Source: a virus (Duplodnaviria; Heunggongvirae; Uroviricota; Caudoviricetes). From it: DNA of 27,914 nucleotides. Both the position numbers and the translations under genes were made by a program. Shown here piece by piece: positions 652 to 27,618 of the stretch (position 1 is the stretch's first letter; each line of letters begins with the position of its first letter). The DNA is taken from the IMG/VR virus record IMGVR_UViG_2913118216_000009; one strand, 5' to 3'. The notes beneath the pieces were generated by a model that was not told the origin of the DNA, did not search any database, and saw nothing but the letters and a program-made list of their open reading frames with translations.

Positions 652-2355
652 TTAGGCAATAATCCCCTGATATTTTTCCCGGGTCTGCCCGGCTTTCGTC
701 CCTGTCTGGGTGAACGCGGCGGCATTGGTTGGCGTCCCAACGGAGGGGTGCGAATGGCTCGCGCATTGCTGCGCCAGCTCTTCCAGTAAATCAATGGTGT
801 CCAGCATCATGGTTAGGGCGTTGATACTCTCACTGCCAATATGGACAGTTGCCCCCATGACCTGCTGACCTCCAGCGGCCACTGATTTACGCAATGCGGC
901 AATCTTCTCTGTCAGGCTTTCGCCAACCTCCACGGCTACAGCACCACCCACTTTAGTAGACTGCCGTCCTGTTATGTCCGTTTCTTCGTTTCCTTCAATA
1001 CTGGACAACCTGTTACCTTTCACCGCCTGGCTATAATCACCGGTGCTGACCTGCTGGATGGCTCCAGCCAGCAATATGGCGGTTCCCAGTACCGTAGTTT
1101 TATCCGTAGCTTTCACCGTGGTTTCACGGCTTACCAGTTCGCGCTGTTCCGTATCGGCTTTTACGGTTCGCGCCATTGATGTTTCGCTGATGGTGTGATC
1201 GGTCTGCCTTACCCAGTCTCCAGCCTGAGTCACCCTCTGCGATACTTCTTCCCGCTGCTGCTGCAATTGCTCACCGGGTTTAACGTCCGGCAGGCTGGTA
1301 CCATCCGGCAGCGTCTGCCTGATAAAGGGTTTATCCGGTCTGCCTCCCGTGAATGCAACCTCAACCAGCGTCCCTTCTGGCGGAAACTGGAACATGCCTG
1401 AATCATTCCCGGCCATCGGTACCGGCAACGGCACCGCTGAATAAACAGGCGTCTGATTGTCCGGGTTTCCGTCTGCGTCAAGCAACTGCACGTCCACGGC
1501 ATAACGTGGCCGGAAAGGATCGGCAAAGTTACCGCTTTTTACCGGCTCTGAATACGCCACGACTCTGGCCATCTTTGGCAAATGAAGCCCGGATGCCAGT
1601 TCAGGGTAATGGCTTTCAATCTGCCTTTGTGCTGGTGTTTTCTGCAAAGGTTTACCCGTTACGCGGTTTCTCGGCATCCATGTGATCGCCATCGTGTCAT
1701 TCGTCAGATGAACCTTAGTCACGCGCTCACCGTTCATCTCCACCCCTGGCCGCATAGTCTGGATCACTGGTAATGTTACAGAGTTACCGCCAGCAGCCCC
1801 CTGGCTGAACTCTGATGGGATTTCTACGGGACGACCGGCAAACAATGACTTTTCTGCGCCACCGACGTAAAGCGAACCATCAGGAAACTGGTACCAGATG
1901 TAATCCTGGATACTGAACGCCCTTCCCAGATTGTTCAGCAACTGATAACCAGTACCGTTATGGGTAAAATGTGGGATAGGGGTATCGCTGTACTGTGCGT
2001 CAGGCACACTGACCGTGATCCCGCTGTGTTCTTCCAACCAGACCGCAATTTCACGCAAAGTCGGGTGTTGAAACGAACATGGCCACATCCTTTCAAACAC
2101 ACCTGCCAACTCACGAATGAACAGACGCTGAAAACCGTTTTCAGCAGGCTGCGATCGCTCCACGTACCCCGTAAACCAGCGCAAAAGCAGATCAGTATAC
2201 CCCACATCCAGCCGCACCAGTTTTCCGGTGTAATCTGTTGTTGTCTCTGCGGTGATGAAGCCCCGGCCGCAGCTGTTCAGCTCCAGTACCAGGCTGGCAT
2301 CCACCAGGTGAACTTCATCCGTTGAAAGGTATAGGCGTTTTACTGGTTTCATCAT
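652..2355 (-). CDS. Baseplate hub / central spike protein (gp27/gpD/VgrG-like N-terminal region with a long C-terminal extension)
   Basis: 567-aa ORF ending the tail operon; N-terminal segment (LLRWFTGYVERSQP...LFIRELAGVFERMW...TLREIAVWLEEHSGITV) resembles the pattern I recall for the gp27/GPD/VgrG hub fold; start overlaps the stop of the upstream gene. Confidence 0.45.
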   Translation of the reverse strand: MMKPVKRLYLSTDEVHLVDASLVLELNSCGRGFITAETTTDYTGKLVRLDVGYTDLLLRWFTGYVERSQPAENGFQRLFIRELAGVFERMWPCSFQHPTLREIAVWLEEHSGITVSVPDAQYSDTPIPHFTHNGTGYQLLNNLGRAFSIQDYIWYQFPDGSLYVGGAEKSLFAGRPVEIPSEFSQGAAGGNSVTLPVIQTMRPGVEMNGERVTKVHLTNDTMAITWMPRNRVTGKPLQKTPAQRQIESHYPELASGLHLPKMARVVAYSEPVKSGNFADPFRPRYAVDVQLLDADGNPDNQTPVYSAVPLPVPMAGNDSGMFQFPPEGTLVEVAFTGGRPDKPFIRQTLPDGTSLPDVKPGEQLQQQREEVSQRVTQAGDWVRQTDHTISETSMARTVKADTEQRELVSRETTVKATDKTTVLGTAILLAGAIQQVSTGDYSQAVKGNRLSSIEGNEETDITGRQSTKVGGAVAVEVGESLTEKIAALRKSVAAGGQQVMGATVHIGSESINALTMMLDTIDLLEELAQQCASHSHPSVGTPTNAAAFTQTGTKAGQTREKYQGIIA

Positions 2356-2900
2356 TAACCCAAAGCATCATTGACGGGCTTCAGTACCTTGCGTTCAAAC
2401 CACGTCAGTTTTTCTTCATCTTCTCCGGCAGACTGGCCACCGGACTGTCCCGCACTAACGGCAGTCTGTTTTTTTGCGGTCGTCTTACCTGTTGCCCTGG
2501 CCTCTTGCTTTTCCTGCACGCTGATATGTTCCGCCAGTGTGAATGTCACCAGCCAGGACATTTTCCCATCTTGCTGGGGGGCATCCACCGTTCCGCTGAA
2601 CGTTGCTTCACGAAAATTAACAGCACGGGCAACTTCATGCACCACGCGGTATTTCTGGCGATTACCACTGGCATCGGTAGTACTGGCCAGCTCAAAAATA
2701 CGCTTTAGTATTCCAGGCTGTTTAAAAGGTATTTCACCGCTGATCCGCAGTTCCTTTCCCTTTGCTCCCTGCTCTGATTTTGTTGTGGCGCTGGTCTGGC
2801 CGGACTGATCTTTATCCTGAAATTGCTGTGAAACAGTCACCCGCATGTTTTTCAGCTGGATGGCCTCGCCATTAAGCGCCAGTGTCGGGATCGAAGTCAT
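2355..2900 (-). CDS. Phage tail-associated protein, function unknown
   Basis: 181-aa ORF translationally coupled between the 253-aa ORF and the hub gene; typical GC content; no recognisable motif. Confidence 0.35.
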   Translation of the reverse strand: MTSIPTLALNGEAIQLKNMRVTVSQQFQDKDQSGQTSATTKSEQGAKGKELRISGEIPFKQPGILKRIFELASTTDASGNRQKYRVVHEVARAVNFREATFSGTVDAPQQDGKMSWLVTFTLAEHISVQEKQEARATGKTTAKKQTAVSAGQSGGQSAGEDEEKLTWFERKVLKPVNDALG

Positions 2901-3633
2901 GAATCATTCCCTTTATTCCATCAAGATTATCACCAACCAGCATCATGGCAGCGGTGTAAACGGCAGGCTGCTGCGGAATGTCCTTCATCAGTTCCAGTAA
3001 CGTGGTGCCGGTGTCTCCGCTGGCAGTAAAAACCCACGCTCTGGCACTTTTTCCCTGTAAATCATTCAGGCCGCTGGCCACATCACTGATAAGCTGGTCA
3101 CGCAACTGCGTGAACTCGCCCAGCTGTTTTTTCAGCCCTTCGATATCAAACCCGGCACCCGCCACCTTTTGTGCCTGACTGATTGCAGCAGCAGATAAAG
3201 CTGCCCTGCTGGTTGGTACAGACAGTGGAATGGACGCAGGTAACGCTGCGGCGGCTTTCGCCGGGATTTGCATCTTTTCAATAGCCAGCGCTGCGGCGGA
3301 TTGTGCCAGCCGTTTGACCTGCGTGAATGCCGGAGCGGGGAAAATCCCGACCAGGTTATTCAGGCTGGTCATAAAGTTTTCCTGCGTCTGTCCGGTGACC
3401 ATCATAATCACCACGTCCGCATTCCCCCCTGTTCCGGCCAGGCGTTCAGCAAGATAGCGAACAGCATTAACCGGGCTGAGATATGCCCCGTTCGCTGTCT
3501 GCTGTCCCAGCCCATAAATCCACGGATGCGCAGGGACGATCGAACAGTTCAGCGCAGCAACAGAATCTGTGAAGGCCAGACATGCTTCACGCCACATTTC
3601 CAGGCACCTCCGGCCACACAATTTCCGGAGCAT
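2872..3633 (-). CDS. Phage tail-associated protein, function unknown (likely start near 3597)
   Basis: 253-aa ORF immediately downstream of the tail fiber assembly gene, overlapping it by a few codons; Ala-rich central region; no recognisable catalytic motif. Confidence 0.35.
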   Translation of the reverse strand: MLRKLCGRRCLEMWREACLAFTDSVAALNCSIVPAHPWIYGLGQQTANGAYLSPVNAVRYLAERLAGTGGNADVVIMMVTGQTQENFMTSLNNLVGIFPAPAFTQVKRLAQSAAALAIEKMQIPAKAAAALPASIPLSVPTSRAALSAAAISQAQKVAGAGFDIEGLKKQLGEFTQLRDQLISDVASGLNDLQGKSARAWVFTASGDTGTTLLELMKDIPQQPAVYTAAMMLVGDNLDGIKGMIHDFDPDTGA

Positions 3634-4174: not shown

Positions 4175-5748
4175 TATGCGAGTCTCACTATGTAGTTAAA
4201 TACGATGTTTTTAACGGTCGTTTCTTCATTGCCCGACGCGGCGACGGTAATGGTGTGACTATGTGCGCCTATTGCTACGGTATGAGAGTGAGCTCCAATT
4301 CCTACAGAATGGCTATGTGCGCCAATCCCTACAATATGAGCATGGTTGCCAGCCAAATCCGTATTACCTGTTGTTACGTTATCGCCGCCCTGACCTCTAT
4401 TGATATCTCCGTTTTGAGTGGCCTGCCCCTTAACATATGTATGAGTATGTGCACCAGTTGTATCGGTTGTTTTGGTTCCGTAATCAAATGTGCTCACAGC
4501 TCTAGTGCCGTAGTCAAAGGATGATGTTGACTTCGTCCCCAGATCGGTACTGAATGCACTAGCAGTGTGGGCATGGGATTTATTGCCATCATCTTCATAG
4601 GACAAAACTGCACGGCCATCAGGTTTTCCTTTGATCGTCTGGCGGCGCATATCAGGAAGAACACCCGATGGGTATACAATAGCCAGTCGCTGGTAAGCCA
4701 CTGGATCAAACACCTGCCCCTGCATGATTGCGTGACCCGCTGGTGGAATATCAGTCGGCCAAGGAAGTGGTACTCCAACCGGCACAACATCGCTAATGCT
4801 TAAGACCGCCAGCTCACCCAGCCCAAGATTTTTTCTGGCTTCCGCCTTGTCATTGATATCGGCAAGGTTTGCATCCTTACGCAAAAAATCGCTGCTGGCC
4901 TGTTGATCGCTCAGACTGCCTTTTGGCCTTAAATCCGTGATGTTGCCATCCACATCAATGCTGGCCACCGCAAATACAAAATGCTGAATACCGTTCTGAA
5001 CATAATCAGTCAGATTTTCTACAACCGTGACTTTACTCTGTACACTCCAGACACTGCTCAGAATCCCTGTCCAGCACACATCCAGCCAGACTTTTACCGA
5101 CATTGTCGTCACTGTAATATCCTGATTCGCATCCAGTGACACACGCAGTCCAGCCACATACCCTGTGCCTTTCGTGACATAAAACTGATTGCCGGTTTTG
5201 GCTACCAGATACCCGTTACCAAAAAACGCCGCCGCGCCATAAATATCTGTATTTTCCAGACGCTGGCGCTCATCAATTCCGGCCAAACGTGCAGTAAAAT
5301 CAATCTGCCAGGTTTCAGCGGGCGTATTAATCCCAGTTTCTGTTTGTGCACCGTTGTACTCCATCAGAAACGAGCGGGTCAGCACGTTCCCCTGTTGCCC
5401 TTCTTTTGTTTTCAGTTTCTGCTGTGCTGGTGCATGGACAATCATTGCCAGCGTACCGCTAGCCTTATTGAGCAGACCAATCCAGTTAAAACTGAAATCC
5501 CCCACATCTGCGCCCAGCACTACGGAATAGACCACCCTATTTTCATCCACCACACCGGTACGGGTAACAGCTTGCCGGTGAACAATCTGTGCTGTCGGGG
5601 GCAACCCTTCATTGCGATCAACAGGGATATCCGCGTTTAAATCCGGCACACTGGCAAAAACAAATTCGTCCAGTAGTACCGGTTCACCTGTTGCGCCCTG
5701 CTGTGCTTTCCAGTTTTCAAACGCCAGTGTGATGGCTGTCTGTGACAT
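4174..5748 (-). CDS. Tail fiber protein (receptor-binding; P2 gpH / Mu S-like N-terminal domain, repeat-rich C-terminal tip)
   Basis: 524-aa ORF; conserved-looking N-terminal fiber domain; C-terminal part has tandem peptide repeats (SxFDYGT x2 and GIGAHSH[ST]V x3-4, i.e. HxH motifs); followed by a Tfa chaperone. Confidence 0.8.
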
Positions 5749-17466: not shown

Positions 17467-19242
17467 ATGGCTAAATACTCTGAAGAATTAAAAGGCGTTG
17501 TTCGCGCACTTTATCTGCGCCGCTATACGCCAAAGGAAATCGCATCTGAATTAAATCTGCCGAATGCGCGGATCGTTTACTACTGGGCGGAGAAATACAG
17601 CTGGGCGGATTTGCTCAGTTTTGAAAGCACAGAGGAAGCAATTGAACGCCGTTACCAGCTGCTGGCCAGCCGCGATAACAAAACCGATCTCGACCTGAAA
17701 GAAATGGACATGCTCATTGCTCATGCCACGAAACTGCGTGCGCAGAGTAATAAACACAAAGAGAAAATGGCCAGCGGTCAGAGTTCCGGGCAAGCAGCTG
17801 CGCGGGACAACAATGACAACGAACCACGCAGCAAACGGAAATACAAGAAAAACGATATTACGTCGCTGACGCAGGAGGACTTTGACGCATGGGCTGAAGA
17901 ACATCTTTTTGAATATCAGAAACACCTGCGCAATAACATTGGCCAGCTTGTCAGGAACATCCTGAAAAGCCGCCAGATCGGTGCGACCTGGTATTTTGCG
18001 TTTGAAGCGTTTGAAAACGCGGTGATGACCGGCGATCCGCAAATCTTTCTGTCAGCGTCAAAGGCACAGGCTGAAGTGTTCCGGTCTTACATCGTGAATA
18101 TTGCAGAGCAGTATTTCGGTATTACGCTAACCGGCAACCCGATCCGCTTAAGCAACGGCGCAGAACTGCGTTTTCTCTCCACCAACAAAAACACTGCCCA
18201 GTCCTACAGTGGCCACCTGTACTGTGACGAATATTTCTGGGTGCCAAACTTTGCAAAACTTAACGAAGTGGCCAGCGCAATGGCCACACATGACAAGTGG
18301 CGCACCACCTATTTTTCAACGCCATCGGCAAAAACGCACCAGGCTTACCCGTTCTGGACGGGCGATGAGTGGAAACAGGGCAGTAAAAAACGTGCGGCCA
18401 TTAAGTTTCCGTCCTTTAACGAAATGCGTGACGGCGGGCGACTCTGCCCGGATGGGCAATGGCGCTACGTCATTACGATGGGAGATGCCATTGCGGGCGG
18501 TTTCAACCTGGCGAACATCGAGAAACTTCGCAACCGCTACAACGACGCCACTTTTAACATGCTCTATATGTGCGTGTTCGTTGACAGCAAAGATTCCGTT
18601 TTCAGCTTTTCCGATCTGGAAGCCTGCGGTGTTGAAATCGACACCTGGCAGGATCACAACCCTGATGCAGCGCGGCCATTTGGTGACAGGCCGGTATGGG
18701 GTGGCTTTGACCCGGCTCGCAGCGGTGATTTGTCCTGTTTTGTCATCATCGCACCGCCGATACTCGCCGTGGAGAAATTCCGCGTTCTGAAGGTGATTTA
18801 CTGGAAAGGCATGAACTTCCGGTACCAGGCAAAACAGATCGAGCAATTGTTTAAAAAATACAACTTCACTTATCTGGGTGTGGACGTTACCGGCATTGGC
18901 CAGGGTGTTTTTGACAACATTCAGCATTTTGCCATGCGCGTGGCCGTCCCTATTCGTTACGACCTTAACACCAAAAATCAACTGGTGCTGAAAGCGGTGG
19001 ACGTGGTGGAAAGCCAACGTATTGAGTGGGATAAAAACCTGAAAGAGATCGCTGCCAGCTTTATGTCTGTGCGCCGAACCACCACACAAAGCGGCAACGC
19101 CATGACGTTTGTCGCTGACCGCAGCCAGGATACTGGCCACGCGGAGGCGTTCTGGGCGATTACCCACGGTCTGCATAACGAACCCCTTAACTATGAAAAC
19201 AAACCTAAATCCCGCTGGGGTGTAAGGAAAGAGGCTGCATGA
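17467..19242 (+). CDS. Terminase large (ATPase) subunit, P2 gpP-like
   Basis: 591-aa ORF, size of P2 gpP; directly followed by the portal gene with an ATGA overlap; divergent from the O-N-M-L operon as in P2. Confidence 0.8.
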   Translation: MAKYSEELKGVVRALYLRRYTPKEIASELNLPNARIVYYWAEKYSWADLLSFESTEEAIERRYQLLASRDNKTDLDLKEMDMLIAHATKLRAQSNKHKEKMASGQSSGQAAARDNNDNEPRSKRKYKKNDITSLTQEDFDAWAEEHLFEYQKHLRNNIGQLVRNILKSRQIGATWYFAFEAFENAVMTGDPQIFLSASKAQAEVFRSYIVNIAEQYFGITLTGNPIRLSNGAELRFLSTNKNTAQSYSGHLYCDEYFWVPNFAKLNEVASAMATHDKWRTTYFSTPSAKTHQAYPFWTGDEWKQGSKKRAAIKFPSFNEMRDGGRLCPDGQWRYVITMGDAIAGGFNLANIEKLRNRYNDATFNMLYMCVFVDSKDSVFSFSDLEACGVEIDTWQDHNPDAARPFGDRPVWGGFDPARSGDLSCFVIIAPPILAVEKFRVLKVIYWKGMNFRYQAKQIEQLFKKYNFTYLGVDVTGIGQGVFDNIQHFAMRVAVPIRYDLNTKNQLVLKAVDVVESQRIEWDKNLKEIAASFMSVRRTTTQSGNAMTFVADRSQDTGHAEAFWAITHGLHNEPLNYENKPKSRWGVRKEAA

Positions 19243-20300
19243 GTAAAAAGAAACGCTTTGTTAAGCGCGACCAGCGCGGCGACAAATCAAAAAAGATGAG
19301 CATTATCACATTCGGCAAACCTGAACCGGTTCTGACTACCGGCACAGATTACCGTGATATCTGGTACGACAATGCCGCCGATCACTTCACCCAGCCGATT
19401 GACCGGCTGGCACTCGCACAGCTGATTAATCTTAACGGTCAGCACGGCGGCATCATTCACGCCCGCAAAAACATGATTGTTTCAGATTACTTGGGTGGCG
19501 GACTTATTCACGACCAGCTGGAAGCGGCAGCGTATGACTATATAACCTTTGGGGATATTGCGATTGCCAAAATTCGTAACGGCTGGGGAGACGTGATCGC
19601 ACTTGAACCCTTACCCGGTCTGTATATACGCCGCCGCAAAGTCAGAGATAACGCCCTGGATAAGCCCGGTGACTACGTAGTGTTACAGGAAGGGGAACCG
19701 CAGATATGGCCAGAAGAAGATATTATCTTTATCAAAATGTATGACCCGCAACAGCATATCTACGGACTGCCGGACTACATCGGCGGTGTGCATTCCGCGT
19801 TACTTAACAGTGAAGCGGTCATTTTCCGACGCCGCTACTACCACAACGGTGCACACACAGGCGGAATTCTTTATACCCGCGATCCCAGCATGACGGACGA
19901 AATGGAGGAAGAAATTGAACAGCAGCTGCGTGACAGCAAAGGGATCGGGAACTTCTCCACCATCCTTGTAAACATTCCCGGCGGAGACGGCGACGCCATC
20001 AAGTTCATTGAAATGGGTGATATTTCTGCTAAGGATGAATTTGCCAACATCAAGAACATCAGCGCACAGGACATTCTGAACGCGCACCGTTTCCCTGCCG
20101 GCCTCGCCGGTATTGTCCCGCAGAATACTGCCGGACTGGGGGATGTTGAAAAGGCTGAACGCATTTATAAGAAAAGCGAAATTGCGCCCATCCAGCGCCG
20201 TTTCATGCTGGCCGTTAACAACGATCCCGAAATACCGGAAAGGTTGCACCTAAACTTTGATTTAAGTTACATAGAATCAATAGATAAAGGTGCGGCATGA
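19239..20300 (+). CDS. Portal protein, P2 gpQ-like
   Basis: 353-aa ORF coupled to the terminase large subunit gene; size and order as in P2. Confidence 0.8.
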   Translation: MSKKKRFVKRDQRGDKSKKMSIITFGKPEPVLTTGTDYRDIWYDNAADHFTQPIDRLALAQLINLNGQHGGIIHARKNMIVSDYLGGGLIHDQLEAAAYDYITFGDIAIAKIRNGWGDVIALEPLPGLYIRRRKVRDNALDKPGDYVVLQEGEPQIWPEEDIIFIKMYDPQQHIYGLPDYIGGVHSALLNSEAVIFRRRYYHNGAHTGGILYTRDPSMTDEMEEEIEQQLRDSKGIGNFSTILVNIPGGDGDAIKFIEMGDISAKDEFANIKNISAQDILNAHRFPAGLAGIVPQNTAGLGDVEKAERIYKKSEIAPIQRRFMLAVNNDPEIPERLHLNFDLSYIESIDKGAA

Positions 20301-20620
20301 TGCGAAACTGGCTAAAATCCATGCTTCATTTAACAGCTGGAGCATGGAATATGCGAGTTCTGAAAATCGAATGCCCGGAATGCGGCTCAAAGGCTGTTAT
20401 TCGTAAAACGAACAGGAAGCATCGGCAAATTGCAGATATTTACTGCGCCTGTTCAGATGTTGAATGTGGCCACACATTTGTTATGAATCTGACATTTTCC
20501 CACACTCTCAGCCCCAGCGCTAAAACGGGTGATGCGGTGGTGCAAAAAATACTGAGTGCACTTTCTCCCGCTCAGCGCCAGGTAGCATTAGATTTACTGA
20601 AAGTGACTCCCGCTGCCTAA
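20297..20620 (+). CDS. Ogr/Delta-family zinc-finger late transcription activator (start may be the internal Met near 20351)
   Basis: CPECGSKAVIRKTNRKHRQIADIYCACSDVECGHTF has the same cysteine spacing and Y..C....C..TF pattern as P2 Ogr as I recall it. Confidence 0.65.
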   Translation: MMRNWLKSMLHLTAGAWNMRVLKIECPECGSKAVIRKTNRKHRQIADIYCACSDVECGHTFVMNLTFSHTLSPSAKTGDAVVQKILSALSPAQRQVALDLLKVTPAA

Positions 20621-20800
20621 AAAGCCCCCAGAATGAGGGCTTTTCCCTTCCTTTCTAACCATTTTGTGAACCTCTTCCGCAAGTTCTCCAATCCAGGCCA
20701 AAGCGATTGTTTTTTCTCTCTGGTTACTTTCGTAATCATGGGCAATTTTAGCTAATAACTCAATGCGTTCCAGCTGTGCCGACGCCTCCAAAAGATCCAT
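20594..20800 (-). CDS. Small hypothetical protein downstream of gene A, possibly SOS-regulated (antirepressor-like role is speculative)
   Basis: 68-aa ORF with a GGGGG Shine-Dalgarno before the ATG; preceded by a LexA-box-like palindrome; its 3' end runs through the terminator hairpin, so the true extent is uncertain. Confidence 0.3.
   Translation of the reverse strand: MDLLEASAQLERIELLAKIAHDYESNQREKTIALAWIGELAEEVHKMVRKEGKSPHSGGFLGSGSHFQ
20621..20650. terminator. Rho-independent terminator (possibly bidirectional)
   Basis: Stem AAAGCCC / GGGCTTT with a 9-nt loop directly after the stop codon of the Ogr-like gene, followed by a T-rich tract; the complementary strand also ends in a T-run. Confidence 0.5.
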
Positions 20801-20822
20801 TTAGCCCCCACAAGCAATAGTG

Positions 20823-20840
20823 ACTGGATAAGTATCCAGT
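20823..20840. promoter_or_regulatory. LexA-box-like palindrome (CTG-N10-CAG)
   Basis: ACTGGATAAGTATCCAGT: 8-bp inverted arms with an AT-rich centre, overlapping a TATACT -10-like hexamer on the minus strand about 25 bp upstream of the small ORF. Confidence 0.35.
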
Positions 20841-20925
20841 ATACCGTACACCGTAAAGCACGAATAGTGAAATTTAATTTCCTTCCATCTACTGAGAAAT
20901 GCATGCATTTCACATATTTACCCTG

Positions 20926-22947
20926 CTAGACCCACCCCGGCCATAACTCGTTTAATGGCTCGTTTTGAATCTCTTTAAGCCACCCATTACGGTAAACCAG
21001 TCCCCCTTGGCCAAACATCAAACCACTACCCCGTAGGAGAATGGCTATTTCTTCATTAGAACCGTTAAAACCCCGACTGCATAATTCCAGTTTTAACCGT
21101 CTGAGGATTCCCCCCTCCGTACAGTTATTGACAGAACTCCAAGGGGCGGCGTTGCCGCCAGAAACCCCCGCCTCCGCTGGCGCTTCGGCCAACTTCGCAA
21201 CCTTTTGCCACTTAACCAGACGGGTGCAAACTTCCGAATCAGGAACCAAAGGAGAATAAACCCCCTGTACGCGCTGCACGTCCTCTGCGTACTCGTTGCC
21301 CTGTTCCGTAATTTCATAGGCCAGACGAACAACCAGATCACGGCGGGCAATCAGTGCGCCACCCTGTGCTTGGGTGTATGCAGCCCAATCGCCAACATCA
21401 GCAGCGGCCAGAACCGCATCCATTCTGCGATCTGTCAGCACCAGATCCCGCAACCGACGCAGCTCACGCCAGACGGTTACCGGCGCACCACCAATCTGCT
21501 GAAACTGACGAATGCGCCAGCGTGAAGCCCATGCAGAAACGGACTTAGCCATATCACGCAGGTTTTCGCCGGTTTCTTCGTCCTGCTCACCATCCAACGC
21601 AAAACCATCAATATTTTTTGAAATGTATTTCGCGATGTAGCCCGTGGCTGAACCTTTGTCGGGATCGATAGCTTCAACGTGAAAACGTGCCTTAAGCGCC
21701 TTTTCAGATTGCAGTTCCTCAGAATCGGTAATTCTGGCGTGATAGCAAAGAATATCGCGTACCGTGTCCACGTCCTGCAGACGCATAAAAAGCAACATAT
21801 GCCAGTGCGGTGTCCCGTCATGGTGTGGCTCAACAACCCGAAACCCAAATACATGAATACCCGCACGCGAGATCGCTGCGCGTGCTTTTGCCCATACGCC
21901 GCATAAATAGCGCTGGGTATCCTGCGGTGTACATCCATCCCATTGCGATACAAAGCCACCTTTGCTGTGCACTGCGTGGAAACGTGATGGCGCGGTGATG
22001 GTGTAAAACTCACCGGCCAGCCCTTCTTCATTGGCCATATCTTCAAACCCTCGCATTCTTACCATTAGTTCACATCGACGGATCGCCGGATTTGCAACGC
22101 TGCGGTGCACCATGCTGTCCAGTGCAATGCGCAGCCCCTCATCATTCAGCAGATCAAACTTTTTAAAGAACTCCAGATTCCGCTTTTTCTGGTCTATCCA
22201 TTCGTCCAGTGTTTTGCGGGATACATAAGCGCTGGCCGCTTTTTGTACCTGTCCCACCGCGATGGCCATATGTTCGCGCTGCATATCACGCGCACGTTTA
22301 AGACGTAGGTACCACCATTCCGGCGCCATCATGCGCAGTATCCCGGATTCCGCCTTACGCATTTCCAGTTGACCTTCATTGGCCTCATGTTCAGCCCAGT
22401 ACGGCGGCTGGTTATTCAGCATCAGGCAACCCGCGCAAAGATGGCGGTATGATTCCAAGGTGCGGCGATGCAGCTCTCTGGCGTCGTCAGTGCCGGAGTC
22501 AAACTGTTCGGTGAAGTCATAAAGTGACTGGGAAATCCAACCAGATACCTGGCCAGCCAGTTTTTTAAGATCAGGACGGTCTAGTGACGGCAAGCGCTCC
22601 AGCGACTTACCAAAAGGAAGATCGGCAGCGTCAGCGGCCAGCGAGTAACGCGCAGCCACTTTGCGCAGACGTGGCAATACACTCCCGCCGATAGTCTGGC
22701 GCAGGAATGTATTGGCACAGCGACGCCCGTCACGACCAGCAAACAGCTTTTCGTAACGACGGCCAAAATACCCGGCTAACCAGTCGGGTATCTCATGAAG
22801 GTACCGGGCTCTCCATTCATAATCCTGCGGATTTACAGCCCACAAACGGCGTTCTGTGATTGTCGCGTCTGCCGGTATGCAAGATGCGAAAGTTTCACGC
22901 CGCCACGTATCGACAGCATAGAAGTGTTCCTTTATAGCCAACATCAT
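20926..22947 (-). CDS. Replication initiation endonuclease, P2/186 gpA family (rolling-circle initiator)
   Basis: 673-aa ORF; contains ...HVEAIDPDKGSATGYIAKYISKNIDG... resembling the active-site tyrosine region of GPA-type proteins; last large gene of the early operon. Confidence 0.8.
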   Translation of the reverse strand: MMLAIKEHFYAVDTWRRETFASCIPADATITERRLWAVNPQDYEWRARYLHEIPDWLAGYFGRRYEKLFAGRDGRRCANTFLRQTIGGSVLPRLRKVAARYSLAADAADLPFGKSLERLPSLDRPDLKKLAGQVSGWISQSLYDFTEQFDSGTDDARELHRRTLESYRHLCAGCLMLNNQPPYWAEHEANEGQLEMRKAESGILRMMAPEWWYLRLKRARDMQREHMAIAVGQVQKAASAYVSRKTLDEWIDQKKRNLEFFKKFDLLNDEGLRIALDSMVHRSVANPAIRRCELMVRMRGFEDMANEEGLAGEFYTITAPSRFHAVHSKGGFVSQWDGCTPQDTQRYLCGVWAKARAAISRAGIHVFGFRVVEPHHDGTPHWHMLLFMRLQDVDTVRDILCYHARITDSEELQSEKALKARFHVEAIDPDKGSATGYIAKYISKNIDGFALDGEQDEETGENLRDMAKSVSAWASRWRIRQFQQIGGAPVTVWRELRRLRDLVLTDRRMDAVLAAADVGDWAAYTQAQGGALIARRDLVVRLAYEITEQGNEYAEDVQRVQGVYSPLVPDSEVCTRLVKWQKVAKLAEAPAEAGVSGGNAAPWSSVNNCTEGGILRRLKLELCSRGFNGSNEEIAILLRGSGLMFGQGGLVYRNGWLKEIQNEPLNELWPGWV

Positions 22948-22993
22948 ATGCTGGCCTCAAGAAGCGATGGCGAAGGACATTTTAGTGGTGTTT

Positions 22994-23278
22994 TTATTGC
23001 CATGCCGCACCGCCTTTGCTGCAAATAGCCTCGGCCTCTTCTCGGATCAACTCAACGATTTCCGCTGCGCTTAAACCTTCATTTGCTGCATGAGTGGCCA
23101 GCTTATCCAGGCGGATGGAACACAGGTCAGCAACTGCGGCTTTACCTTCCTGCGTGGCTTTAGCAAGCATGTCCAGTAGATCAGTACCAAGCTTTGTTGC
23201 GGGTAAATCCTGATGTGTCATATACATTTTGGGTTCCCTTAAGGCAAAAGAATCCCCGGCCACTTGAACTGTGACCAA
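22994..23278 (-). CDS. Early-operon hypothetical protein (probable start at internal Met near 23227)
   Basis: ORF immediately upstream of gene A on the same strand; acidic, helical-looking; no recognisable motif. Confidence 0.4.
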   Translation of the reverse strand: MVTVQVAGDSFALREPKMYMTHQDLPATKLGTDLLDMLAKATQEGKAAVADLCSIRLDKLATHAANEGLSAAEIVELIREEAEAICSKGGAAWQ

Positions 23279-23294
23279 AAATTCAGACAGTTAA

Positions 23295-23696
23295 TTAGTG
23301 AAAATGGGTTAGTACTGTGGCGGCTGAATAGTTCGGTGCCGGAATCAGATGCAGCTCATAGGTTGTCTGCCACCACTCCTGGATTATTGATTTTATCTCG
23401 CCAACACCCAGCGCCCCGGCTGTATAGAAAATCGCGCGAATCCCTGCCAGCGCTTCGATCTGCGCATCTTTGCTCTGTGCTTCGCGGTACACGCAGCACC
23501 AGAAAGCGGCATTAATAGCTAACCAGTGGCGCAGATTCATCATGTGTTCGGCGTCATTGAAAAAGAAAGGATGCAAAGCGATGCGACCATTTTCACTGGT
23601 GTTTTTCGCTGCAAACGATACAACATAGATATGAGGGACGCCCCATACAGCGAGTTCTTCCCGCAACGATTTACCCTCAACGGAAATAATGGTCAT
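23295..23696 (-). CDS. Early-operon hypothetical protein
   Basis: 133-aa ORF packed between neighbouring early genes on the same strand. Confidence 0.45.
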   Translation of the reverse strand: MTIISVEGKSLREELAVWGVPHIYVVSFAAKNTSENGRIALHPFFFNDAEHMMNLRHWLAINAAFWCCVYREAQSKDAQIEALAGIRAIFYTAGALGVGEIKSIIQEWWQTTYELHLIPAPNYSAATVLTHFH

Positions 23697-23707
23697 TAGT
23701 GATTCCT

Positions 23708-24124
23708 CTATTGCTGGAACTTATGGACGATATGAGGCGCGATCACCATCTGCACCCCACTATTACTACAAATTGGATGTGCTTTTTTTATTGGCCGATT
23801 CGCGGTACGTTTCGAAAAATCGCTGTCACGTAAACTGCCAAAACCGTCAAATGTTAATCGCGCCCGTGATATCCCCTGACGCAGTTGAATCATGTACCGA
23901 TAGCCCAGGCGTTCATAAATCTCCCGCCAGCAGCATTTGCATAAATGAGCTTTAAATACTCTGGAACCTGAAGTAATCGCAGCAGCATGAAGAACCACAC
24001 CGCGCCATTCTGGTGTTAAGTCGTCCCACCATTCAGCGGCCTTACTGCTTTCGCTGAAATATTTACGGCGGATCTGTTTTAATTGCTCAAGTCCACGCTT
24101 TTGCTGTTCCTGACTAATCGCCAT
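23708..24124 (-). CDS. Early-operon hypothetical protein
   Basis: 138-aa ORF, same strand, 12-nt spacing from the next gene; Cys/His-containing segment HLCKCCW. Confidence 0.45.
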   Translation of the reverse strand: MAISQEQQKRGLEQLKQIRRKYFSESSKAAEWWDDLTPEWRGVVLHAAAITSGSRVFKAHLCKCCWREIYERLGYRYMIQLRQGISRARLTFDGFGSLRDSDFSKRTANRPIKKAHPICSNSGVQMVIAPHIVHKFQQ

Positions 24125-24153
24125 AGCGCCCTCTTCCCACCGTGCTGTGATAG

Positions 24154-24336
24154 TTAACGATCAAAGTTGAAAGACAGACGACGGACAAGACGTGGCGCGC
24201 GACAAAACGGAACGTCCAAACAAGAGTGATTGTGAAACCACACGCGCCCGCGTTCATCTCCCTGGCGGCTACTTTCTAGATGGCGCTTTATGGTGAAATA
24301 CACTATCGTGCCGCTGGTTTTTTTAGGCTTGCGCAT
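24154..24336 (-). CDS. Small early protein (60 aa) of unknown function
   Basis: Internal ATG of the 101-aa track ORF preceded by a strong Shine-Dalgarno (AAAGGGGAATAAT-ATG); the upstream part of the track ORF overlaps another small ORF in a different frame. Confidence 0.35.
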   Translation of the reverse strand: MRKPKKTSGTIVYFTIKRHLESSRQGDERGRVWFHNHSCLDVPFCRAPRLVRRLSFNFDR

Positions 24337-24353
24337 ATTATTCCCCTTTAGAT

Positions 24354-24527
24354 TTATAACCCCATCAAACGCCACCACCACGGGCGGCGCTGTTGCTGGC
24401 CATTGAATTTGTACATGTGACCGGGGTTCCAACGCTGCCCGTTGGGCAGTTCTATCCAACCCGTTGATCCACTTGGCAACTGCATTGCTGGTGATTCATT
24501 TTTCAGGTAGGTGGCAAACGCTTTCAT
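24354..24527 (-). CDS. Small early protein (57 aa) of unknown function
   Basis: Not in the ORF track (below 60 aa); ATG preceded by a GAGAG Shine-Dalgarno a few nt after the CII-like stop; Trp-rich C-terminus (RRPWWWRLMGL). Confidence 0.3.
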   Translation of the reverse strand: MKAFATYLKNESPAMQLPSGSTGWIELPNGQRWNPGHMYKFNGQQQRRPWWWRLMGL

Positions 24528-24536
24528 AGTGCTCTC

Positions 24537-25040
24537 TCATATCAGGCCGGTGGCATTGATTGTGACCAGCGCTACCGCAGCGGCCAGGACGGGCGTAGAG
24601 TGAAAACGACTTTCCACGGTATAAGCCAGCACGGATAAGCTACGAATTGCATCGCGGGCGCGATCCAGAATTTGAGTACGACGAGCGGCAGTCATATGGC
24701 AAGTTGATACGGCTTCCCCAGCAATCGCCCCCACGCACGCAGTGGCGCTAAGAGCACACAGTTGCATGTTGCCTTCAGTGGCATTATTCACAGGCACGGA
24801 TGGCAGGCAGTTAATTTGGCTTAACATCCCATCCAGTAAACGTGCATCTTCGGTGTAATCCGTAATGGATATAAGCTCATCGCACGTTAAACGGTGCGGT
24901 TGCGCTGGATTTAGTTTGTTGCGCAGGATCTGCGGCCTTATACCAACGGCAACAGCCACATCTTCAAGATTGTGCTCAATTGCAAATGCTCGGCAAGCCG
25001 CATCAAATCGCGCATGTTTAGAGATCTGGTAATCAAACAT
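24537..25040 (-). CDS. CII-like lysogeny establishment regulator (phage 186 CII type)
   Basis: 167-aa ORF, second gene of the leftward operon diverging from the repressor gene; size and position match 186 CII. Confidence 0.55.
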   Translation of the reverse strand: MFDYQISKHARFDAACRAFAIEHNLEDVAVAVGIRPQILRNKLNPAQPHRLTCDELISITDYTEDARLLDGMLSQINCLPSVPVNNATEGNMQLCALSATACVGAIAGEAVSTCHMTAARRTQILDRARDAIRSLSVLAYTVESRFHSTPVLAAAVALVTINATGLI

Positions 25041-25070
25041 TGTTTGCCTCTCGCTAATCCGTAGGATGAA

Positions 25071-25352
25071 TTACGCGTTAAGTGAAATATCACATTCACT
25101 TAAAGCCTGAATGGTTAGCGCGGCCATGTTGACCTCAACCAGGCCTTTCTTCTGCTTACCCTTAGGTTTAATGGGCAATTTCCCGTATTCGATCAGATTT
25201 CTGGCAGTTTCTTTGTTTGTACCAGTACGACGGCAATATTCGTCTAAAGGCAGGTAAGGTTCCGGTATGATGATTGTAATGCTCGGACGCATAAGGCAAA
25301 CTCCATTAGTCAACCTGTACGGTAATACAGGGCTGTAACTGTCAATATTCAC
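25071..25352 (-). CDS. Apl/Cox-like small DNA-binding protein (excisionase / switch regulator); probable start at internal ATG near 25292
   Basis: First gene of the operon divergent from the repressor; about 73 aa from the internal Met; basic helix-turn-helix-like segment (TGTNKETARNLIEYGKL). Confidence 0.5.
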   Translation of the reverse strand: MNIDSYSPVLPYRLTNGVCLMRPSITIIIPEPYLPLDEYCRRTGTNKETARNLIEYGKLPIKPKGKQKKGLVEVNMAALTIQALSECDISLNA

Positions 25353-25411
25353 TTAAACCTACAAAGCAGAGTTTAAACTCGCTTTGAGAAAGATTTCAAG
25401 GAAAAATTTTC
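25293..25411. promoter_or_regulatory. Lysis-lysogeny switch region (divergent promoters and candidate operators)
   Basis: About 120-bp region between divergent Apl-like and CI-like genes; contains inverted repeat CCTGTAC-N5-GTACAGG-like and duplicated TTTAAAC motifs. Confidence 0.45.
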
Positions 25412-25990
25412 GTGAAGCTACAAATTGAATTTTCTCATGGCGGATCAGAAGTCTTGGACAGAGTCATCCAGGCGTATGGTTTCAACACAAAATTAGCCCT
25501 GGCCGAACATCTTGATATAGCAAGTAGCAGCCTGGCTAATCGCTACAAGAGGGATTTTTTTCCAGCAGATATCGTTGTTAGATGCATGGCTGAAACGGGA
25601 GCAACTCTGGAATGGCTTGCGACTGGGCAAGGAAGAAAGTTTAACGATGACGAATTAGACATCATGAAACTGCCGCGTAAGAAGATTGTGGACGGAAAAC
25701 TCTATGATTCCGGTTTGCTAATGCTCGATAAGGTTACTTTTTTACCTGGTAAGCCTTTACCACAGAATCCAATCTGTGTGATTGACAACGCAATGCAGTA
25801 CATTGTTGATCAACACTTTCCCGAAGTTTACGACGATGATTGGTTAGTTGAAATTGAAGGAAAAACAAGTGTGAGAACCCTTACGCGCATCCCCGTAGGC
25901 AAAGTTCGAGTGAGTGGCGTTGGGATGGCATTTGATTGCGCTATCGAAGATATAAAAATTTTAGGTCGTATTATCTTAACTATAAAATAA
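25412..25990 (+). CDS. Immunity repressor, phage 186 CI type
   Basis: 192-aa ORF (GTG start with AAGGAAAAA Shine-Dalgarno), same length as 186 CI as I recall it; transcribed towards the integrase gene and divergent from the Apl/CII operon; no LexA/S24-type cleavage motif seen. Confidence 0.6.
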   Translation: MKLQIEFSHGGSEVLDRVIQAYGFNTKLALAEHLDIASSSLANRYKRDFFPADIVVRCMAETGATLEWLATGQGRKFNDDELDIMKLPRKKIVDGKLYDSGLLMLDKVTFLPGKPLPQNPICVIDNAMQYIVDQHFPEVYDDDWLVEIEGKTSVRTLTRIPVGKVRVSGVGMAFDCAIEDIKILGRIILTIK

Positions 25991-26004
25991 TAAGGAAAAT
26001 TATA

Positions 26005-26574
26005 ATGATAGATTACAAGACTGCATCTAAAGACCAATTAAAAGTAGAAATGAAACGATTGTCTGCCGCTGTTTCAGATACGCCATTTGGTACAAAAAAA
26101 GAATTTTTTCATCTTCCCGAAGTTTTAAACACCGGCGAGGAACCGCTTGGCATAGTAAGCGGTATGATGGATGGCAACACCTGGTTAATAACTTTAACTA
26201 ACCAACGCGTTATCTTCCTCGATAAAGGGATGATATTTGGTGTTAAGCAGGTCGATATTAGCCTTCGTAACATTGTAAGCGTTGGCGGAAAGACTGGACT
26301 GATATTTGGTGAGATAATGATTTCAACAAGCGGACAGAATTACACCATAAAAAACGTTATAAAATCCTCCGTAATTCCTTTTACCAACCTTGTTAATGAG
26401 ACAAGGAATAGTCTGGACAAGCCACAAGTTATCACCGCTCCTACAAGCTCCAACGAAAAATCTTCATTTGATGATGTCATGGATAAAATTGAACGTTTGG
26501 CTGAAATGAAAGCAGAAGGCATTCTTACTGAAGAAGAATTTCAGCAGCAAAAACAACGCATTTTAAACAGCTAA
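26005..26574 (+). CDS. PH-domain plus SHOCT-domain protein (moron between repressor and integrase)
   Basis: ATG at about 26005 with AAGGAAAA Shine-Dalgarno; central region resembles bacterial PH (YdbS/YokE-like) domains; C-terminus IERLAEMKAEGILTEEEFQQQKQRIL matches the SHOCT motif; strongly AT-rich. Confidence 0.6.
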   Translation: MIDYKTASKDQLKVEMKRLSAAVSDTPFGTKKEFFHLPEVLNTGEEPLGIVSGMMDGNTWLITLTNQRVIFLDKGMIFGVKQVDISLRNIVSVGGKTGLIFGEIMISTSGQNYTIKNVIKSSVIPFTNLVNETRNSLDKPQVITAPTSSNEKSSFDDVMDKIERLAEMKAEGILTEEEFQQQKQRILNS

Positions 26575-26577
26575 GCT

Positions 26578-27618
26578 ATGTCTGTAAGAAAATTAACAAA
26601 TGGCCAGTGGATTGCCGATTTCTACACGGTGGATCGAAGCAATGGTAAAGCCGGTAAGCGTATTCGTAAAAAATTCGCTACAAAAGGCGAAGCCCTGGCC
26701 TACGAGAACTATACGCTTCAGCAAGTGGAGAACTCCCCCTGGCTTGGCGAGGGTAAAGACCTCCGTACTCTAAGCGACCTAATCAACATGTGGTACGAAC
26801 GCCACGGCGTAGCTTTGCGCAACGGTCAAAAGCGTAAAGACGCAATGACATGGGCGGCGGAGTGTATGGGATTCCCGCTGGCCACAGAGTTTAATGCTCA
26901 ACTGTTTACAGCATACCGCGCAAAAAGGCTTGATGGGCATTATGCCCGCACTAACAGAGTATCCAAGGTTTCCCCGAAAACAATGAACCTTGAACATGCT
27001 TACTTTCTGGCTATGTTCAATGAGCTTAAACGGATTGGAGAATGGTCAGCCCCTAACCCACTGGAAAACGTCAGACAGTATCGCACTGATGAAACCGAAA
27101 TGGCTTTCCTCACTGCTGAAGAAATTGATCGGCTTTTGCTGGAATGCAAACGCAGTAAAGTAAGTTACTTAGAGTTAGTAGTAAAAATTTGCCTGGCGAC
27201 CGGCGCAAGGTGGAATGAAGCGGCGACACTCAAAAGCTCCCAGATTGCTGGCGGAAAAGTCACCTTCATAAAAACAAAAGGGAAAAGGAACCGTACCATT
27301 CCCTTAGATGATGAACTTCTGGCTGAAATTTCGGAAACAAAAGGCGCTCTGTTTCCGAAGCCCTGCTATAACGCTTTTCGTTCCGCCCTGGAACGTGCAG
27401 GTATTGAATTGCCTTCTGGTCAGCTAACCCACGTATTACGCCATACATTTGCCAGCCACTTTATGATGAATGGCGGGAACATTCTGGTTCTGCAAAAAAT
27501 TCTCGGCCACGCTGACATCACTATGACAATGCGTTATGCCCATTTCGCCCCAAGCCACCTTGAAGATGCTATGCGACTTAACCCCTTAAAATGTCGCAAA
27601 AATGTCGCTGCAGCTTAG
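26578..27618 (+). CDS. int: Tyrosine integrase (P2/186 family site-specific recombinase)
   Basis: 346-aa ORF; C-terminal catalytic region HVLRHTFASHFMMNGGNILVLQKILGHADITMTMRYAHF with the conserved R...H-x-x-R...Y arrangement; located at the prophage end. Confidence 0.9.
   Translation: MSVRKLTNGQWIADFYTVDRSNGKAGKRIRKKFATKGEALAYENYTLQQVENSPWLGEGKDLRTLSDLINMWYERHGVALRNGQKRKDAMTWAAECMGFPLATEFNAQLFTAYRAKRLDGHYARTNRVSKVSPKTMNLEHAYFLAMFNELKRIGEWSAPNPLENVRQYRTDETEMAFLTAEEIDRLLLECKRSKVSYLELVVKICLATGARWNEAATLKSSQIAGGKVTFIKTKGKRNRTIPLDDELLAEISETKGALFPKPCYNAFRSALERAGIELPSGQLTHVLRHTFASHFMMNGGNILVLQKILGHADITMTMRYAHFAPSHLEDAMRLNPLKCRKNVAAA

Follow-up and report, generated by a model that had tools for sequence, protein, structure and literature searches.

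The early gene block between cII and A of a 186/ESSI-2-type prophage, with a probable divergent relative of P2 gpB

Introduction

Phage 186 requires host dnaC for its replication, and P2 does not. P2 B reportedly interacts with E. coli DnaB. In the GenBank record of P2, B is listed as an essential gene needed for lagging-strand synthesis. In the 186 record, overexpression of Fil is noted to block cell division, and orf80 is listed as "unknown function; not essential". A hairpin in the same early operon carries the name tR1 in the 186 record, with the note "anti-terminated during early lytic development", and is entered for P2 as a "putative rho-independent terminator" after B. Here the corresponding interval is described in a 27,914-nt stretch of viral DNA (IMG/VR record IMGVR_UViG_2913118216_000009), referred to below as the window. 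The interval is a 1,534-nt block holding five minus-strand open reading frames (ORFs), labelled g1-g5, between cII and gene A.

The block is an ordinary variant of the known P2/186 operon, and identical copies of it are already public. We consider it reasonably likely that this interval forms the central part of a pR-driven early lytic operon in a prophage of the 186/ESSI-2 type (Peduoviridae), with the functions proposed below. Directly established in this analysis are the gene content, the families of g1 and g5, the conservation of the genes, the selection on g2, the conserved hairpin, the synteny, and the statistical similarity of g3 to the B family.

Gene content of the block

The features of the block, in the order of transcription, are as follows.

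24354-24527, minus strand: g1, Fil-family protein of 57 aa, PF10893 (Phage_186_Fil; formerly DUF2724)
24154-24336, minus strand: g2, basic protein of 60 aa, phrog_17199, between fil and g3
23708-24124, minus strand: g3, helical protein of 138 aa, phrog_33841, probable divergent member of the P2 gpB family
23295-23696, minus strand: g4, protein of 133 aa, phrog_3935, always directly 3' of g3
23240..23284, minus strand: predicted tR1-like intrinsic terminator hairpin (terminator scan), followed by GGGGATTCTTTTGCC, between g4 and g5
22994-23227, minus strand: g5, DUF2732 protein of 77 aa from ATG, PF10809

The initial annotation had described five tightly packed ORFs at this place and had credited the 57- and 60-aa frames with strong Shine-Dalgarno (SD) sequences. 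The five ORFs are confirmed. A purine-rich SD-like sequence lies 5-10 nt 5' of each of the five ORFs, that of g2 being the strongest (AAAGGGGAATAATATG), and all five products have homologues elsewhere with protein-like conservation. The whole block is 100% identical in several public Escherichia sp. assemblies, including GCA_004745305.1, and the source organism is assigned on these copies, a scan of genome contigs for an exact 41-mer of the window having given no match. The nearest sequenced phages are those of the ESSI-2 group (Quadragintavirus ev015, ev040, and ev129), with 86-88% nucleotide identity over g3-g5 only, and the best E. coli genomes reach ~88%.

The five proteins were scanned against Pfam, NCBIfam, PHROGs, and PADLOC, which yielded names for g1 and g5 alone. 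None of the PADLOC-DB defence profiles matched any of the five at E ≤ 0.1. Sequence searches of the PDB with profiles of g2, g3, g4, and g5, and with P2 B, returned no significant match. A literature search on Fil/Dhr, DUF2732, and gpB turned up only the paper on 186 CII and, in the reference list of PMC11087808, the entry for Odegrip et al. 2000 on the P2 B-DnaB interaction.

The g3 protein and P2 gpB

Profile evidence taken together with synteny makes it likely that g3 is a divergent, single-domain member of the P2-B superfamily, and it is most likely a replication accessory protein and not a takeover gene. With a hidden Markov model (HMM) of the extended g3 family, P2 B obtains 13.0 bits (E 4e-6, one comparison) and the GpB protein of Yersinia phage 06.16 obtains 11.6 bits. 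Fifteen other early proteins serving as controls, among them Dhr, Fil, g2, g4, and g5, reach at most 2.8 bits, 186 Dhr showing no similarity at −2.1 bits, and none of 5,000 shuffled versions of P2 B reaches 13 bits. The reverse search used an HMM of the B family, made from P2 B and the Yersinia GpB proteins, against 2,268 ORFs and proteins. Its next matches are solely g3-family members (best P0213, E 3.9e-4) and DUF5347 proteins.

Comparison of the two families profile against profile (hhalign) gives a probability of 77% and E 2e-5 over 93 columns (g3 1-104, P2 B 1-98); the g4 profile, as a control against the B family, gives 0.9%. In the phage collection all matches to P2 B are at least 85% identical, too similar for a diverse alignment of that protein. 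The g3 family also matches gp07 of Yersinia phage 324, annotated "replication protein GpB", with an hhalign probability of 98%. The PHROG families, among which phrog_235 and its relatives stand for P2 gpB, point the same way. P2 B matches phrog_14551 (1e-11), phrog_602 (1e-9), and phrog_5349 (2e-5), and distant members of the g3 family match phrog_33841 together with phrog_5349 (~1e-8) and phrog_14551 (~1e-5); g3 of the window itself matches phrog_33841 only.

The Yersinia 06.16 GpB is a clear homologue of P2 B (BLASTP 1e-10). Its 103 residues align twice on P2 B, at residues 44-80 (E 1e-10) and 106-158 (E 6e-4), and P2 B (1959-2459 of the compared P2 stretch) appears to contain two tandem copies of one domain. 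Homologues of g3 form 104 clusters, all labelled "hypothetical", and only 39 clusters at 50% identity were counted among 1.8 billion proteins. The AlphaFold2 (AF2) model of g3 is all-helical, with a predicted local distance difference test (pLDDT) score of 74 and no specific fold match. A conserved motif, MVIAP, stands at residues ~126-133 after a low-confidence linker and ends nearly all close homologues too; a partner protein might dock on this short peptide.

Directly 3' of g3 is its constant neighbour g4, whose homologues form 77 clusters with protein-like conservation. The stop and start codons of the two genes overlap in most relatives, and an 11-nt spacer separates them here. The g4 model is confident (pLDDT 85, predicted template modelling score 0.81) and shows a small alpha/beta unit at the N-terminus, with helical hairpins after it. 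Neither fold nor sequence matches were informative for g4 in Pfam, NCBIfam, the PDB, or structure comparison. Whether it corresponds to the C-terminal half of P2 B, or is kin to another P2/186 early protein, was also considered; both ideas were dropped, no relation having been found. The one functional suggestion that g4 allows is cooperation with g3.

The slot between fil and the terminator

The gene pair g3-g4 occupies a position that is filled differently among P2/186 phages.

186: dhr (66 aa)
EtG, Cartapus, SEN8, and Klebsiella phages: a DUF5347 protein (~112 aa)
Three Yersinia phages: a 103-aa protein annotated GpB
P2: B (166 aa)
ESSI-2 group and Yersinia phage 324: g3 and g4
The window and a few Citrobacter and metagenome prophages: g2, g3, and g4

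P2 B, 186 dhr, the DUF5347 genes, the Yersinia GpB genes, and g3-g4 all lie directly 5' of a homologous hairpin and a DUF2732 gene. In the window g3 adjoins g4, then the hairpin and the DUF2732 gene; P2 likewise has B, the terminator, and orf80. That this stretch varies between relatives had been proposed at the outset, and the slot content does differ by lineage in the phages and prophages compared.

The DUF5347 proteins, which fill the slot in many 186-like phages, may be B-like as well, since they resemble the P2 B family weakly (E 1.7e-3 by hhalign, E 0.01-0.13 with the B-family HMM). Examples in the compared stretches are EtG gp38 (4682-5020), SEN8_41 (4182-4523), and another at 4182-4520.

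Fil, the tR1-like hairpin, and DUF2732

The first and last genes of the block belong to named families. The g1 protein is assigned to the Fil family, as a homologue of the 186 cell-division inhibitor, by a match to PF10893 at 42.6 bits (gathering cutoff 25, E 4.8e-11) in which residues 1-37 cover profile positions 1-34 of 56. It also matches phrog_7623 (6e-28) and phrog_816, "cell division inhibitor" (8e-9), and a RefSeq homologue carries the name "phage filamentation protein Fil family". Against 186 Fil itself it is 39% identical over residues 3-35, the N-terminal 33. The gene starts 9 nt past the cII stop codon, the same position as in 186 and all relatives. P2 orf78 was compared as a possible Fil homologue, which the comparison did not support.

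The hairpin at 23240-23284 is probably a tR1-like terminator. Its folding energy is −18 kcal/mol and it is kept in relatives. A hairpin with GGGxxTTCTTTTGCC precedes the DUF2732 gene in ESSI-2-type phages, Yersinia phages, EtG, SEN8, 186, and P2.

The g5 protein matches PF10809 at 45.7 bits (gathering cutoff 25, E 6.7e-12) and phrog_128, and it is 40% identical to 186 orf80; P2 orf80 is in the same family. By these matches g5 is identified as a DUF2732 protein and a homologue of both orf80 genes. It is the first gene past the tR1-type hairpin, as in 186, P2, EtG, SEN8, and the Yersinia phages. The initial annotation had left its length at 77-94 aa. The 77-aa start stands, because the 94-aa form, from an upstream TTG, crosses the conserved hairpin and the proteins of relatives have 77 aa.

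Between g5 and A, at 22948-22993, the window carries no cargo. Close relatives have an RNase T-like exonuclease, DUF3850, Dam methylase, PAPS reductase, or 70-aa ORF there. The gap is thus a second variable slot of the operon, since the relatives' cargo differs and the window is without it.

The optional insert g2

The g2 gene is identified, on its pattern of substitution, as a translated gene under purifying selection, and its distribution over several phage groups marks it as horizontally shared. Its product has 60 aa counted from ATG (the mechanical ORF has 101 aa from an upstream TTG) and matches phrog_17199 with E 1.2e-29 over residues 1-59 of 60. Relative to an E. coli EH09-18-41 prophage, the gene is a 212-nt insertion reaching exactly from the fil stop codon to the SD sequence of g3. 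It is absent from the ESSI2 phages and related prophages, and E. coli megablast matches stop short of it. A large database has only five protein clusters of the family.

Homologues occur far from this operon. The g2 protein is 68% identical to a 60-aa ORF that the P22-like phages L, ST64T, ST160, and PM43 carry between nutL and gene 24 (N). Protein homologues in distant phages are 40-49% identical. Such more remote relatives are gp49 of Erwinia phage 59 (vB_EhrS_59; 49% identity), directly 5' of N, a protein of the T4-like Morganella phage vB_Mm5, and a weaker one in ST231. The Erwinia phage 59 and vB_Mm5 proteins themselves match phrog_17199 at ~1e-17 and ~1e-16. Compared with the P22-like copy, g2 has reached saturation at synonymous sites (32.8 of 40.5), with a nonsynonymous divergence (dN) of only 0.22; among close copies the ratio of dN to synonymous divergence (dN/dS) is 0.4-0.5. 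The assignment of g2 as a translated, selected gene follows from these values, and the frame is unbroken in every copy. A scan of genome contigs for g2 relatives found none.

Short ORFs of this block had been expected to be easily missed, and g2 bears this out. It was called as a gene in only one of five public copies of the identical prophage. The 60-aa homologue is unannotated in the GenBank/RefSeq records of L, ST64T (2491-2673, minus strand, within the compared stretch), and ST160, and the ORF is also present in record X94331; PM43 alone annotates it. In vB_EhrS_59, two N-like genes, gp50 and gp48, lie on either side of gp49 (2183-3032 of the compared stretch). The former has a weak N_peptide match and an annotators' HHpred note pointing to NusA/N, and the latter is a phi80-type N.

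No match to g2 was found in Pfam, NCBIfam, PADLOC, the PDB, or Rfam. It is not a homologue of 186 Dhr, with which BLASTP gives no alignment, and a zinc-binding role was rejected on the grounds that its Cys residues vary among homologues. Because g2 is also present in lambdoid, P22-like, and T4-like phages, its target is most likely a conserved host component.

Alternative readings

Several observations weigh against the preferred reading of the block. Single-sequence comparisons of g3 with P2 B (BLASTP, single-sequence hhalign) are weak or negative, the best probability is 77%, and the link is unseen by Pfam and NCBIfam, neither of which has a match for g3 of the window. P2 B (~166 aa) appears to have two tandem core copies, and g3 has one domain copy and a different C-terminal tail with the MVIAP motif; the Yersinia GpB (103 aa) is also single-copy. 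The PDB search with P2 B gave no P2 B structure to compare. In g1, the Fil match is confined to the N-terminal 37 residues, and the C-terminal 20 are unlike 186 Fil. The terminator and the pR-like promoter are consensus matches only, and no family or structure search yielded a functional clue for g2 or g4.

One rival reading is that g2, g3, and g4 are non-essential host-takeover or anti-defence cargo, a functional replacement of 186 dhr outside the phage replication machinery. The three genes do lie in the exact slot of dhr ("inhibits host DNA replication"), past fil and before tR1; the content of that slot changes with lineage, g2 is an optional and horizontally shared insert, and g2 and g4 resemble nothing known. 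Nevertheless we regard free cargo as unlikely, given the reciprocal profile similarity of g3 to an essential replication protein, the absence of PADLOC matches and of similarity to Dhr, and the core-gene behaviour of g3 and g4, a pair that all the ESSI-2-type relatives examined possess, as does Yersinia phage 324 with its otherwise minimal early operon. Less probable again is that the likeness of g3 to P2 B is due to chance or is a fold-level resemblance of small helical proteins, g3-g4 being an unrelated two-gene module such as a regulator pair or a superinfection exclusion system. The signal is reciprocal, specific to the B family among the controls, and lost on shuffling; the conserved RxxxxxHAxL...W/F.E...E motif lies in the same register, the synteny agrees, and the PHROG bridging is independent of our own alignments. 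For g2 alone, a conserved RNA or regulatory DNA element, such as a nut-like leader or one that modulates a terminator, in common with the pL leaders of lambdoid phages, would fit its position in the P22-like pL leader between nutL and gene 24 and its mostly unannotated state. The intact frame of all copies, the substitution pattern, the strong SD sequence, the absence of an Rfam match, and protein homologues in distant phages make such an element very improbable.

The preferred reading, an early operon with a Fil protein and a probable B-like replication protein, also bears on the initial annotation, which found no assignable motif in any of the five proteins and placed them in a host-takeover stretch. 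The first of these statements must be revised, with g1 and g5 above the gathering cutoffs of PF10893 and PF10809 and g3 most likely gpB-like. The second is borne out in so far as 186 has fil and dhr here, according to GenBank notes; it does not extend to the block as free cargo, g3 being most likely a replication accessory. Clear homology to characterised replication proteins is not a property of all five genes: g3 alone is a probable relative of one.

Surrounding genes

The immunity and early region lies at the right end of the window and includes the following features around the block.

20926-22947, minus strand: gene A, rolling-circle replication endonuclease (PF05840, E 3.6e-104), downstream boundary of the block
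24537-25040, minus strand: cII, 186-type CII of the CP76 family (PF06892, E 1.3e-43), upstream boundary of the block
25071..25292, minus strand: apl/cox-like excisionase/repressor, 73 aa from an internal ATG, relatives making a 73-aa product here
25370..25399, minus strand: predicted pR-like sigma-70 promoter, TTGAAA-18-TAAACT, between cI and apl/cox
25412-25990, plus strand: 186-type cI, strong Pfam match
25999-26574, plus strand: gene with bPH_3 and SHOCT domains, ~190 aa, between cI and int in the lysogenic operon
26578-27618, plus strand: integrase, strong Pfam match

The order on the minus strand is therefore apl/cox, cII, g1, g2, g3, g4, the tR1-like hairpin, g5, and A. The pR-like site is the sole promoter-like match that a promoter scan gave in 20800-25600, and its location agrees with pR of 186 in the gap between cI and apl. 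The mechanical apl/cox ORF has 93 aa from a GTG at 25352; the gene is annotated as Cox-like in ev040 and has a weak HTH_17 match.

In relatives, the position between cI and int holds a WYL-domain protein, a 295-aa protein, an ATPase with a hypothetical protein, or, in 186, nothing. With the bPH_3 and SHOCT gene here, it looks like a slot for variable cargo or lysogenic conversion; that protein has no PADLOC match. On the other side of the block, an Ogr/Delta zinc-finger late activator gene (20297-20620, plus strand) overlaps and directly follows the portal gene (19239-20300) and converges on A. Unlike 186, the window has no tum/orf97-type SOS module after A.

Proposed mechanism and its implications

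Transcription from pR would drive apl-cII-fil-g2-g3-g4, and read-through of the tR1-like terminator would allow expression of DUF2732 and A. Family membership and the 186 annotation suggest that g1 stops host cell division after induction or infection. The g3 protein, probably together with g4, may bind the host DnaB helicase and bring it to DNA nicked by A. The model for this role is P2 B, which is thought to recruit DnaB likewise for lagging-strand synthesis. The g2 product would be a small, basic, independently mobile early protein that acts on some conserved host target.

Two more specific proposals can be made, and we hold it doubtful that at least one of them is true. In one, g3 and g4 together are a split, divergent form of the helicase-recruitment function of P2 B. 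The phage would then do without the host loader DnaC, which 186 itself needs, and across P2/186 phages in general the genes lying between fil and tR1 would encode DnaB-directed proteins (B, DUF5347, and perhaps even Dhr). Recruitment of DnaB by g3-g4 would be a further case of non-homologous or highly divergent replacement of a helicase loader in phages, and it would explain the differing host replication needs among 186-type phages. In the other, g2 targets the host machinery of transcription elongation or termination. The suggestion comes from its position, beside N in lambdoid phages and here upstream of an antiterminated terminator. The protein would be one that travels between 186-like, P22-like, phi80-like, and T4-like phages.

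The general picture of P2/186 early operons is unchanged by these results. For annotation, several hundred "hypothetical protein" clusters from P2/186-like prophages of Enterobacteriaceae (the g3 family and possibly DUF5347) could be linked to P2 B, and a 60-aa early gene passed over by gene callers proves to be genuine, under selection, and shared horizontally among phages.

Comparison with known phages

By profile methods, the g3 protein and P2 gpB probably have in common a core of ~65-90 residues, RxxxxxHAxL...[W/F]xE...E..L..I..LR, which the Yersinia "GpB" proteins would share as well. They also share their location 5' of a terminator and a DUF2732 gene. They differ in sequence, with ~16-17% identity over the aligned columns, and in the constant partner g4, which is absent in P2.

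The g2 gene and the ORF of the P22-like phages and Erwinia phage 59 are homologous, and in every case the gene is short, is transcribed early, and belongs to a temperate phage. They reside in different phage families and in different operons, the latter being in the pL operon directly 5' of the antiterminator gene N.

The early operon of 186 (apl-cII-fil-dhr-tR1-orf80-orf81-84-A) and that of the window agree in the order apl, cII, fil, hairpin, DUF2732, and A. Their CII, Fil, and DUF2732 proteins are homologous, and the hairpin with GGGxATTCTTTTGCC is common to the window and the annotated tR1. The window lacks dhr and has g2, g3, and g4 in its place. It also lacks orf81-84 (Zn-finger, exonuclease, DUF5405, and PAPS-reductase-like), so that DUF2732 is followed directly by A.

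The closest relatives are ESSI-2-type Peduoviridae, namely Cronobacter phage ESSI-2 and Escherichia phages ESSI2_ev015, ev040, and ev129, with further prophages in Citrobacter, Salmonella, Enterobacter, and E. coli. Their order of Fil, g3, g4, hairpin, and DUF2732 is that of the window. Most of them differ from the window in lacking g2 and in carrying extra cargo between DUF2732 and A. Variation before the terminator is limited to one slot within a conserved backbone of Fil, a slot gene or gene pair, the hairpin, DUF2732, optional cargo, and A. With the B-like protein counted as part of the P2/186 backbone, the window adds to it only the optional insert g2 and the lineage-specific g4.

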